Numbered from the stretch's first letter, positions 15,229 to 19,904 are shown. The stretch is DNA of 54,880 nucleotides from Candidatus Fermentibacter danicus (GCA_001618615.1 LKHB01000185.1:34934-89813), one strand, 5' to 3'. The notes: generated by a model from the letters alone, not told the origin. Made by a program: numbers and translations.

Positions 15229-15858
15229 TCAGAAGAGCGTCTTCAACCTTCCCCAGGTGGACCTTGACAGACCGGACAGCGCATCCCCGCGGACACGGAT
15301 GAGGTAGTCACCCATATCCCCCAGGGGGAAGCTGTGCTGAGCGCCCGTGAAGTTCGGCCCGTCGTCCATGAGCAGGCTGGGCCAGCCTCCGCCGGACATC
15401 TCCGTGTTCACCACCACCCAGAAGTCCACGGGAACTTCGAGGGGAGGGTCGAAGACGGCGTAGCACGGCGCATAATGCTCCGCCGGGACCGAGACCTGAG
15501 CGATCAGCGTGGCCGGGCCTCCCTCATCGCCGGAATAGACCTCGGCCAGGAAGCTGGCCGTATCCCAGGGAAACGACGAATTGTGGTAAAACCAGAACTC
15601 GAGAGAGTCGACCTCCGCCGCGCAGGCTCCGGGGACGAAGTCCTCCAGATCGAACCACACCCCCCTGGAGGTCCCGTCCCAGATCAGCCAGAAGGCGGAA
15701 CCGTCGTCATACGCGAATACGCCATCGGTCGGGCCACCCTCCACCGGGAATGGATCCACCGGACTCACGGAACTGAACGCCGCTCCTCCCCATGCATGCG
15801 CCGCGGCCAGAGCCAGTGTGGCAGACAGGAGAACTGAAGAAATCGAACGATTACCCAT
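15229..15858 (-). CDS. small secreted protein of unknown family (signal peptide, beta-rich, conserved-looking C-terminal tail)
   Basis: Signal peptide MGNRSISSVLLSATLALAAAHAWGG. Beta-rich body (VFAYDDGSAFWLIWDG...FWVVVNTE...). Ends STWGRLKTLF. AGGAGG SD lies 8 nt before ATG 15858. A sigma54-type promoter lies upstream. Confidence 0.75.
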   Translation of the reverse strand: MGNRSISSVLLSATLALAAAHAWGGAAFSSVSPVDPFPVEGGPTDGVFAYDDGSAFWLIWDGTSRGVWFDLEDFVPGACAAEVDSLEFWFYHNSSFPWDTASFLAEVYSGDEGGPATLIAQVSVPAEHYAPCYAVFDPPLEVPVDFWVVVNTEMSGGGWPSLLMDDGPNFTGAQHSFPLGDMGDYLIRVRGDALSGLSRSTWGRLKTLF

Positions 15859-15884
15859 TGTCTCTCACCTCCTGCCATGTCTGA

Positions 15885-19100: not shown

Positions 19101-19904
19101 GGCCTGCACAGGCTGGGAAGGCCGGCCGGGCCTTTCGTCCCCATCGACTGCGGAGCGATACCGGAGGGGCTCCTCGAGTCCGAGCTGTTCGGTGCGAAAG
19201 GCGGTTCGTACACCGATCTCAGGAAGGACAGGACAGGGCTGCTGGAGGAGGCCTCGGGCGGCACGCTCTTCCTCGACGAGGTCGGGAACCTGTCGCCGCT
19301 TCTCCAGTCAAAGCTGCTGAGAGTCCTCGAGACGGGCAGGTTCAGGCCGCTCGGGGCGACAGTCGAGCGGGATGCGGGATTCAGGCTGGTCGCGGCGACC
19401 AACGCCGACCTCCGATCGATGGCCGCCGAGGGAGCCTTCAGAGCGGATCTCTTCTTCAGACTGTCCGTCATAGAGCTGAGAACGCCCCCCCTGAGGGGAA
19501 GGGCACAGGACATCCTCGAACTCGCACTCCTCTTCGCAGGGCAGATCCCGGGAGACGACCCGCCGCGGCTCACGAAGCAGGCGGCGGGCAGGCTGGTCGC
19601 CCACGACTGGCCGGGCAACGTGAGGGAGCTGCGGAACGTGATACAGAGGGCGGCCGTGTTCAGCAGAGGCGCGATCCGATCCGGGGATCTCGATTTCGGT
19701 CCCTCCGCCGCGGCGGATGAACATCCTGCGGCCATGGAGACACTGCAGTCAGCAATGGACATACATGTCGCTTCGGTTCTGTCGGCCTGCGGGGGCTCGA
19801 TACGGCGCGCATCCGAAGTTCTGGACTGCGACCCGAAGACAGTCAGGAGGCGGGCGAAGCTCTATCGCGGGCGCCTCGACAGGAAGGGGCTGCCGGGGAC
19901 GTAG
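16164..19904 (+). CDS. giant sigma54-type enhancer-binding protein: kinase-like (predicted inactive) + degenerate AAA_16/STAND-like + TPR-like repeats + sigma54 AAA+ + Fis-type HTH
   Basis: C-terminus has Walker A GETGTGKE, Walker B GTLFLDEV, ESELFG, WPGNVRELRNVIQRA and a terminal HTH. The N-terminus begins VKEPRYISRRFLPGGRE... (kinase G-loop-like). The longest ORF starts at ATG 16065 without an SD. I prefer GTG 16164 (GGAGG 10 nt upstream, a kinase-like N-terminus begins immediately, and a candidate promoter lies inside the 16065 extension). Confidence 0.85.
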   Translation: MKEPRYISRRFLPGGREEALLDSPDGPILARIFQTTVPQRVVEEWFAEVSALSVPGVAVPTRLSGQAAGRFMLSLPAPYADHPGARSPEPGEVAARLSSLHAAGHLLLDCPAFIRDDGGDDLLVYWGDTALRHPFPGVSPEVDAGGFAGPCSDYYQFGLWMKNTADRRGEAGCDAGTVAELCSHSPRRRAKAAAEAGFFPGAAAMDSQPRIPDAPVSFLLSGPWEARDSIVNEILAAASRKGWPARAVRCSPGEAGRPLPDRPRGTGAVVSAADLLATLFPGVTGVTRLLVVDQADFASSDLIHMLSELMEIRPPHFRLLISASSAPPGLDTGRASRIELEGERTTALDSPSGCGSTGWAGPSWYGPRRRSEFVPGGEVRSAVTREEAWREGALRETADAWMAGLLPESMRQMAVDSLLRTGRATEALTVADPSDTPSRAEALLAAGRPEEAWETLRNPSAGCDRTRLAGLLSEALLGMGRLQEALEALSGCDDPATTVKKASIMDLLGDPGSALGMIEAALPAGGPGRSALLCARCTLQMRLGFYDGASSSADEAVRIDHDGADSAGLARSLQERGRVREVTGDWRGALEDYRLSSLLVSELGLHSERPVETDLFILESRMGLGRDAARTREALTTSLGSGGNPMDALKLDLLDSCTAALAGMGSEGLPTAERGAAAAASLGTPLLQGLCLLYKGQLHAQAGDMTEAAEALRHSRALAGLLGDRHLTLLAGIALAEIGESSEPGILRSLASELGLTSEAHEASAAAGPDDDRAQALRALLKLPSPMRACSLAVRFGHGGDPELLEDLRTARRNVLSTLPEPQRRAFDTMTAALERSDAATPEITAAMSRNALQEFSGWLAERLNGREGIPELAARLGLDTLSDSADGGVMIGEEPEPVYASGPGLEAARALAPLLAAALAGETAAAETVMSPHDDFPEIVGSSPGIVDLKARMTRVARLDLPVLVTGETGTGKELVARGLHRLGRPAGPFVPIDCGAIPEGLLESELFGAKGGSYTDLRKDRTGLLEEASGGTLFLDEVGNLSPLLQSKLLRVLETGRFRPLGATVERDAGFRLVAATNADLRSMAAEGAFRADLFFRLSVIELRTPPLRGRAQDILELALLFAGQIPGDDPPRLTKQAAGRLVAHDWPGNVRELRNVIQRAAVFSRGAIRSGDLDFGPSAAADEHPAAMETLQSAMDIHVASVLSACGGSIRRASEVLDCDPKTVRRRAKLYRGRLDRKGLPGT

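Follow-up and report, generated by a model that had tools for sequence, protein, structure and literature searches.

The DNA analysed here (a stretch of 54,880 nucleotides, GCA_001618615.1 LKHB01000185.1:34934-89813, hereafter the window) comes from Candidatus Fermentibacter danicus, a sewage and digester bacterium of the uncultured candidate phylum Fermentibacteria. Two divergently oriented genes occupy positions 15,229 to 19,904, one encoding a 209-amino-acid (aa) secreted protein and the other a 1246-aa enhancer-binding protein of the sigma-54 type (the activator), and the spacer between them holds a -24/-12 promoter element facing the secreted-protein gene together with two candidate upstream activator sites (UAS1 and UAS2; Table 1). 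Reading the sequence alongside related loci, we consider it likely that these parts make up a sigma-54 regulatory unit in which the adjacent activator drives the divergent gene for the secreted protein.

The -24/-12 element, TGGAACGCGTCTTGCT, matches 11 of the 12 positions of TGGCACG-N4-TTGCW, with a single mismatch and exact GG-N10-GC spacing, and 26 nt separate it from the ATG (15858-15856) of the 209-aa gene. It is the sole match in the window at one mismatch or fewer, where 0.19 would be expected by chance and at least one such match arose in 15 of 100 shuffles of the window. Taken from the window alone, the match is only suggestive; its significance derives from the retention of motif, orientation and spacing at related loci. 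The predicted transcription start of the 209-aa gene is at about 15874, so that its leader would measure some 16 nt and begin at the Shine-Dalgarno sequence. The same short-leader arrangement is common to L001, L002 and L010 (L-numbers denote the loci collected for comparison), in which AGGAGGTG likewise follows the promoter motif by 11-12 nt. No sigma-70-like (-35/-10) promoter was predicted on the target strand. Direct reading of 15100-16400 bore out every sequence statement of the first-pass annotation, namely the motif, the 26-nt spacing, the Shine-Dalgarno sequence in the leader and the palindrome upstream, and its description of an AT-rich spacer was equally sound, as 15901-16200 is the 300-nt segment of lowest GC content in the 55 kb (0.497 vs about 0.65 overall, the next lowest being 0.563).

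Table 1. Features of the divergent unit in the window, followed by the -24/-12 elements at related loci.
Feature	Position	Strand	Basis or remarks
Target gene, 209-aa secreted protein	15229..15858	-	Sec-type signal peptide residues 1-22 (...AHA/WG), beta-sandwich body, C-terminal TWGRLKTLF
Conserved C-terminal motif TWGRLKTLF	15232..15258	-	family pattern [ST]xWGx[ILV]Kxx[FY]-COOH
Shine-Dalgarno sequence AGGAGGTG	15866..15873	-	read directly; 7 nt before ATG 15858
Putative sigma-54 type -24/-12 promoter element TGGAACGCGTCTTGCT	15885..15900	-	consensus match and conservation
UAS2, weaker second site TGGGAGAATATGGA	15968..15981	-	18 bp nearer the promoter than UAS1
UAS1, inverted repeat AGGGAAATTTTCCCT, proposed activator site	15985..15999	.	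starts 98-99 bp upstream of TGG
Sigma-70-like promoter of activator gene, TTGACC-17-GATATT	16084..16112	+	promoter prediction
Enhancer-binding protein (activator), 1246 aa, start GTG 16164	16164..19904	+	Shine-Dalgarno GGAGGA at 16149-16154
N-terminal pseudokinase domain (predicted), about residues 1-200	16164..16763	+	AlphaFold2 and Foldseek
Alpha/beta region, degenerate P-loop-like pattern	16776..17267	+	low confidence; ends in invariant GPSWYGPR
Helical TPR-like repeat region, about 560 aa	17286..18953	+	sub-threshold Pfam TPR_2, ANAPC3; conserved in all orthologues
Sigma-54 interaction AAA+ domain and lid	18981..19691	+	Pfam and motifs
C-terminal Fis-type helix-turn-helix	19776..19853	+	HTH_8
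-24/-12 element, L085			AGGCAGGCGGCTTGCT
-24/-12 element, L001			TGGCACGCCTCATGCT
-24/-12 element, L002 and L010			TGGCATCAGGAATGCT
-24/-12 element, L080			TGGCATATCGATTGCT
-24/-12 element, L031			TGGCAAATCATTTGCT
-24/-12 element, L028			TGGCAAGGCAATTGCT
-24/-12 element, L071			TGGTAAACCAATTGCT
-24/-12 element, L045			TGGAAGCCTTCATGCT
-24/-12 element, L087			TGGTAAGTGGCTTGCT
-24/-12 element, L089			TGGCATGGCACTTGCT
-24/-12 element, L091			TGGAAACTATGTTGCT
-24/-12 element, L092			TGGAAACTCAGTTGCT
-24/-12 element, L023			TGGTACGGCAATTGCT
-24/-12 element, L037			TGGCACGTGAGTTGCT
-24/-12 element, L064			TGGCACCCGGGATGCT

Loci for comparison were gathered in two independent ways, as genome contigs anchored on the family of the 209-aa protein together with the encoding contigs, and as metagenome contigs anchored on the N terminus of the activator. 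Seventeen loci, which span activator N-terminal identities from 75% down to 31%, carry a TGG-N9-TGCT element (AGG in L085) ahead of their first gene and on its strand. The first gene behind the element is a homologue of the 209-aa protein in all but one of them, the exception being L089, a 3.3-kb contig on which an intact module is followed by a short open reading frame (ORF) and an rsgA-like fragment. Invariant among the 17 elements are the GG, an A at position 5 and the TGCT, while the six spacer bases at positions 6-11 are free to vary. When 12 loci were aligned without gaps on their promoters, the mean information per column was 1.22 bits in the -24/-12 element, 1.07 bits in UAS1 and 0.67 bits in UAS2, compared with 0.3-0.4 everywhere else, so that these three were the only islands of conservation, and the argument for a promoter module is drawn from their standing in otherwise unalignable sequence. 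Comparable -24/-12-like sites occur at a background of 0.17 per kb per strand in the 1.75 Mb of these loci. Among approximately 130 family paralogues that lack the module, none carries a near-consensus -24/-12 element at the promoter position; a few weaker matches (9-10 of 12) fall at other offsets, and 12 of their upstream regions read directly (L004-L006, L008) hold mostly TTGAC-type boxes. Conservation of the motif at orthologous loci, which the first-pass annotation had named in advance as a test of its proposal, is thus what was found, with the strand kept and the spacer variable.

The second conserved part of the module is the inverted repeat AGGGAAATTTTCCCT, with perfect 7-bp arms around one central base and its centre 92 bp upstream of the TGG. 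By pattern match, a GGGAAAnnTTCCC-like inverted repeat starting at -98 to -101 from the TGG is present in 14 of the 17 modules, and a fifteenth, in L031, was read by eye only. Most loci also have a less conserved second site of the GGGA/GGAA type 18-21 bp downstream of UAS1, corresponding to UAS2. The palindrome had earlier been guessed to be an activator site, and this guess has gained in that only the promoter is better conserved than the palindrome and the distance between the two stays at 98-101 bp; the binding itself we infer from adjacency. Similar sites lie at the activator's own 5' end. The UAS2 sequence GGGAGAATATGGATCAT (15964-15980) recurs inverted as GGGATATTCAGGATCAT at 16105-16121 on the plus strand, a further occurrence being listed at 16063-16073. 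The copy at 16105-16121 is kept in L085 and overlaps the predicted -10 of the activator gene, and in distant loci a GGGAAATATTC site falls inside the activator's first codons (NISRR). These repeats are hints of autoregulation.

The two genes themselves travel together. Of 14 distinct activator loci, in which the activator orthologues share 31-75% identity over the N-terminal region, 12 have a family gene next to the activator and divergent from it, and this arrangement was recovered in the family-anchored search and again in the independent search anchored on the activator's N terminus. The unit sits between TamB-MPG and Wzi-TrmA in the window, L001, L002 and L080, and between a radical SAM gene and glnA in L031 and L071; since these two neighbourhoods are unrelated, the pairing has survived a change of genomic context. 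In distant lineages the activator is paired with two or three family genes that form an operon. Co-occurrence and divergence in relatives, also laid down beforehand as a test, have therefore held across two neighbourhoods. The two exceptions among the 14 are L089, described above, and L088 (2480-2720), which keeps an activator orthologue and UAS-like sites and lacks the family gene; neither the GG nor the GC of its -24/-12 element is left (TGATGCGATGATTGTT). This looks like the loss of the target after the unit had formed, and the decay of the promoter with the target, while the activator stayed, supports the regulatory unit.

Some observations on these loci stand apart from the pairing. The activator orthologue of L001/L009 (3974-7697, OY970370.1) is not in a single frame but spread over several, either as a pseudogene or through indel errors of long-read assembly, and the promoter module (TGGCACGCCTCATGCT) is intact. 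The glnA gene beside the unit in L031 and L071 was considered as a second sigma-54 target and rejected, as it has a TTGAC-N17-TAnnnT promoter and no -24/-12 element. Between the family operon and glnA there is a small Cys-rich ORF (MKMI.CCGL.C..CPA...; L071 7180-7500, L031 6700-7020), which may be DUF3795-like.

The activator is the one sigma-54-type AAA+ protein encoded in the window, as the first-pass annotation had said and as motif scan, tblastn and Pfam agree. The listed ORF of 16065-19904 over-extends, and the activator does not begin at its ATG 16065; we place the start at GTG 16164 because the N termini of orthologues (MRKPRCISRR..., MKNTTIENISRR...) align with VKEPRYISRR of the window and because the sigma-70-like promoter lies inside the longer ORF. 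The distance of about 265 bp given earlier already implies this start. Orthologue lengths (1246 aa for P0030, 1247 aa for P0031) agree with the 1246 aa counted from GTG 16164, and in the closest relative, L085, TTGACC-17-GATAAT occupies the position of the predicted activator promoter.

At its C-terminal end the protein is of a familiar kind. Sigma54_activat (PF00158) matches at 189.5 bits (cut-off 20.2), together with AAA_lid_14, and the AAA+ motifs are intact (Walker A GETGTGKE, Walker B FLDEVG, sensor II GNVRELRN). The sigma-54 contact loop reads GSYTDL (19203-19220) where GAFTGA is expected, with the aromatic residue and the Thr kept, and the loops of orthologues read GAYTDL in L002 and GAYTG[IL] in L031, L071 and L080. 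The Thr and the aromatic residue are those on which contact with sigma-54 depends, and GAYTGA is a natural functional loop of HrpS (PMC3105312); in Clostridiales activators, GSFTGA and GAYTGA are likewise regarded as working variants (PMC6615313). The Fis-type HTH_8 helix-turn-helix (HTH) scores 15.9 bits in the window protein, below the cut-off of 22, over the aligned GGSIRRASEVLDCDPKTVRR segment, and 27.7 bits, above that cut-off, in the L071 orthologue.

Pfam recognises nothing in the N-terminal 930 residues, whose homologues were found only in this lineage in a database of 5.8 billion proteins. Searches of the N terminus by sequence (Pfam, NCBIfam and PDB profiles) returned nothing significant, the best being a pseudokinase at E=1 and AAA_16 at E=0.036, and no Pkinase match appeared in Pfam even at E<=10. 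Only one protein came back when the N-terminal profile was run against a word-indexed protein set, so that the AlphaFold2 model of residues 1-370 was built on a thin alignment of 4 sequences. The model has a predicted local distance difference test score (pLDDT) of 70-86 over residues 1-130, and Foldseek returned 227 PDB matches at E<=1e-3, every one of the top 50 being a protein kinase or pseudokinase at probability 1.00; the kinase fold was thus settled by structure prediction only. Residue assignments made by eye place HLLLD or HLSID at the HRD position and [YF]WG at the DFG position (HLLLD and YWG in the window), with an invariant Arg at about the position of the VAIK Lys (beta-3) and the APE kept as SPEV. 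Because its catalytic motifs are replaced, the modelled domain is read as a pseudokinase and not a kinase. The alpha/beta region that follows has a beta-alpha-beta pattern of secondary structure at a pLDDT below 50. Membership of the STAND/AAA_16 NTPases was considered for it and set aside, there being no Walker A GxxxxGK[ST] (the P-loop position reads SGPWEARDS) and no significant profile match, as AAA_16 reached 1 of 7 orthologues at E=0.036. What the first-pass annotation had called an atypical activator can now be given specific content, that is, a pseudokinase and TPR-like sensor region and GSYTDL in place of GAFTGA.

The target protein was earlier described as impossible to place in any family. 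It has no Pfam or NCBIfam match, but it belongs to a multi-copy family with named members only in this phylum: of its 28 close homologues, all those with an organism name come from Candidatus Fermentibacteria (Hyd24-12). One-genome-per-species Fermentibacteria assemblies gave 96 stretches matching this family of about 200 aa, of which 75 distinct loci were kept, often as tandem arrays of 3-7 paralogues and with several loci possible per genome. An exhaustive profile search of 1.84 billion representatives found 168 proteins with the family domain. Arrays of 5-7 paralogues occur in L006 (4869-9424), L008 (7917-11250), L011 and L034; each family gene of L006 has its own TTGAC-type promoter, often with a hairpin terminator before it, and most of those in L008 are only about 30 bp apart.

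The AlphaFold2 model of the 209-aa protein is a beta-sandwich (pLDDT 65), for which the best Foldseek matches, discoidin/F5-8 type C and CBM32 modules, are weak at that model confidence (E ~1e-2, template modelling (TM) score 0.3-0.4). The family domain also occurs inside large proteins that end in a type IX secretion tail (Por_Secre_tail, PF18962) and carry peptidase C10, trypsin-like, FG-GAP, cohesin or CarboxypepD_reg domains. We considered the 209-aa protein as type IX cargo and rejected this, as it has no Por_Secre_tail and PF18962 is confined to the distant multidomain relatives. The stand-alone members have a C-terminal motif of their own, in which W202 and K206 are invariant and G203 nearly so (family alignment A1); it lies within the last 25 residues of 68 of 102 such members and is predicted to form a short helix. 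One idea, that WGxIK is a linker preceding type IX tails, was dropped when the motif was found in none of 29 large relatives. The C-terminal peptide may instead be a sorting or anchoring signal. Our best guess is that the target is made under certain conditions and serves as a binding module on the surface or outside the cell, and such a role would fit the general tie between sigma-54 regulons and the cell envelope (PMC4551910).

Several points weigh against a sigma-54 unit of this kind and have to be set beside the evidence above. Because the loci share descent, their number cannot be read as a count of independent trials. The palindrome pattern is not enriched in the window (3 matches vs 5.6 expected at one mismatch or fewer), and, as adjacency only links the upstream sites to the neighbouring activator, another regulator could bind them. 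The leader predicted for the target transcript is very short, and the window protein is without 8 residues, in frame, of the conserved SDDFxxWEPW block (about residues 177-184) that its closest homologue P0002 keeps. GSYTDL differs from GAFTGA at 4 of 6 positions, and we found no tested precedent for it, notably for the Asp at the fifth. Full modules stand before a family gene in L023 (5790-5900), L037 (1760-1875) and L064 (160-290) with no activator within the flanks fetched, the preceding feature being a GNAT gene in L023, an ORF in L037 and, by eye, a tRNA in L064. Adjacency is thus not obligatory, and from these three loci it follows that the activator probably also acts in trans, on a regulon that is probably larger than one locus. 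Finally, rpoN was not found: a six-frame search of the window with an RpoN-box regular expression, a tblastn search of the loci collected by then with E. coli RpoN and a check for a Sigma54 family among genes called within 10 kb of either end of the window were all negative, and these searches, which cover the window, those loci and the flanks, give no evidence of absence. In the literature on the phylum, including the Hyd24-12 genome paper, we found nothing on sigma-54.

The alternative that survives best, although we regard it as unlikely, is that the promoter and upstream sites are real and answer to another protein, the adjacency of the activator being inherited gene order. The three modules with no activator nearby speak for it, and the window, L001, L002 and L080 share their whole neighbourhood, so that adjacency among them could be inherited. 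The pair is also kept, however, in the second, unrelated neighbourhood (radical SAM to glnA) and was found again by a search anchored on the activator alone; UAS-like sites recur on the activator's own promoter or first codons; and in L088 the promoter has decayed beside the remaining activator where the target was lost. It is less probable still that the activator works without sigma-54, as a sigma-70-type regulator or repressor in the manner of TyrR or HupR-like proteins, the resemblance to a -24/-12 promoter being nonfunctional. The four altered loop residues, the negative searches for rpoN in the phylum (collected loci and literature) and the presence of TyrR among the many NCBIfam matches to the AAA+ domain would suit such a protein, but a GG-N10-GC frame with TGG and TGCT has been kept in 17 loci amid unalignable sequence, no -35/-10 promoter is predicted on the target strand, and the loop retains its aromatic residue and Thr, reading GAYTG[IL] in distant orthologues, close to the loop of HrpS (PMC3105312). 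That the resemblance arose by chance beside an ordinary, constitutive small gene, as the matches in shuffled windows and the unenriched palindrome might suggest, is very improbable and effectively refuted by the comparative data, since motif, strand, start-codon distance and UAS distance are conserved over 17 loci that are not near-identical copies (activator N-terminal identity 31-75%) and the element is absent from paralogues without the module.

The proposal that the enhancer-binding protein controls the 209-aa protein is therefore largely supported by promoter conservation and by the pairing of the two genes, with the presence of sigma-54 and binding at the upstream sites as its inferred parts. 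Under a sigma-54 unit of this kind, the 1246-aa activator would be made from its own sigma-70-type promoter, and its C-terminal Fis-type HTH would bind the inverted repeat GGGAAAnnTTCCC (UAS1, 15985-15999) and the weaker UAS2, about 100 and 80 bp, respectively, upstream of the -24/-12 promoter at 15900-15885. A signal received by the N-terminal region, which presumably exerts negative control as in many enhancer-binding proteins, would let the AAA+ domain assemble as an active oligomer. DNA looping would then bring the activator to sigma-54 RNA polymerase, with the GSYTDL loop touching sigma-54, and the use of ATP would open the promoter for transcription of the gene for the secreted beta-sandwich protein (15858-15229).

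By gene content the window is ordinary chromosome, and its own genes are found again in many sewage and digester assemblies. Its first part encodes HflX, CarD, IMPDH, a histidine kinase, QueA, TGT, a TrmA-like methyltransferase and a Wzi-like protein; the studied unit is followed by an MPG glycosylase, TamB and an Omp85 protein, and later by two CHASE4 kinases, a MacB/HlyD/TolC efflux set, GlgA, RadA, DnaB and others. An Rfam scan of the window returned no families. The 139-nt gap (15082-15221) between the target gene and the convergent Wzi-like gene contains three GC-rich hairpins; L001 and L002 hold an extra DUF4097 gene at this place, and the window has none. The minus-strand gene at 2597-4228 encodes a protein of 543 aa that falls into no Pfam family and, over residues 142-223, resembles PknB only weakly; this may be another degenerate protein of the kinase type. 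A stand-alone 146-aa PTS_EIIA_2 protein is encoded at 6063-6503 (minus strand), divergent from a GAF histidine kinase gene; the idea of using PtsN as an indirect marker of sigma-54 was dropped, as this protein scores higher as a fructose-type EIIA. The two CHASE4-domain histidine kinases adjoin one another at 27460-32552 (minus strand), one with PAS and the other a hybrid with a receiver domain.

Fermentibacteria are abundant in anaerobic digesters and sewage and have never been cultured, and the unit offers them a testable promoter/operator pair and a sigma-54 consensus for the phylum. It would also be the phylum's first regulon, built on a multi-copy secreted family of which only some copies would be under activator control. 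Three features appear to be undescribed: the pseudokinase/TPR-like sensor region, the strongly divergent GAFTGA loop and the secreted family with its own C-terminal motif. Among the enhancer-binding proteins described so far we found no sensor that joins a TPR-like region to a kinase fold devoid of catalytic residues, and the pairing of a divergent loop with a well conserved promoter is a natural test of how much of GAFTGA is required. It is tempting to speculate further that the activator founds an undescribed class, in which a pseudokinase, a degenerate NTPase-like module and a TPR-like scaffold read a protein or envelope signal and govern the AAA+ motor, that its regulon is the Fermentibacteria-specific secreted beta-sandwich family, and that ...TWGxIKxxF-COOH is a new sorting signal or outer-membrane anchor replacing the type IX tail; this larger picture, taken whole, we hold to be doubtful.

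Divergent units of an enhancer-binding protein and a sigma-54 promoter are familiar from Proteobacteria, where PspF-pspABCDE, NorR-norVW and PrpR-prpBCDE are examples. The present unit resembles them in that the activator diverges from its proposed target, inverted-repeat sites lie about 80-120 bp from a GG-N10-GC promoter, a Sigma54_activat AAA+ domain is joined to a C-terminal Fis-type HTH, and sites near the activator's own promoter suggest autoregulation. It differs from them in its sensor, which is not a receiver, GAF, PAS, V4R or PRD domain but some 930 aa of kinase fold and TPR-like sequence found in Fermentibacteria only, in its GSYTDL loop, and in a target that is a secreted protein, not a stress or metabolic operon. 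MphR-mphKLMNOP is likewise described as divergent (PMC3063778). With HrpS of Pseudomonas syringae and the Clostridiales activators, the loop shares a Tyr in place of Phe and the retained Thr (PMC3105312, PMC6615313). It goes beyond their loops in the Ser at position 2, the Asp at 5 and the Leu at 6 of the window protein, all orthologues having Ile or Leu at the sixth position.

Ser/Thr kinase domains, AAA_16/STAND NTPases and TPR repeats are combined in large signalling proteins such as PknK and the MalT/LAL-type regulators. The activator follows the same order of modules, from a kinase fold through an alpha/beta P-loop-like region and a long TPR-like region to a DNA-binding output. In contrast to those proteins, its kinase motifs and the Walker A lysine are replaced, so that both modules are probably inactive, although the NTPase assignment is weak, and its output is a sigma-54 AAA+ motor with a Fis HTH and no LuxR HTH. 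The target, for its part, is like the accessory domains of type IX cargo, since the family profile matches internal domains of Por_Secre_tail proteins, and like discoidin and CBM32 modules, to which its modelled beta-sandwich has its best, weak PDB matches (E ~1e-2, TM 0.3-0.4); unlike type IX cargo, the window protein stands alone, has a Sec signal peptide only and ends in TWGxIKxxF. The mechanism as a whole is the standard one of sigma-54 activation, a known theme that the Fermentibacteria unit extends and does not change.

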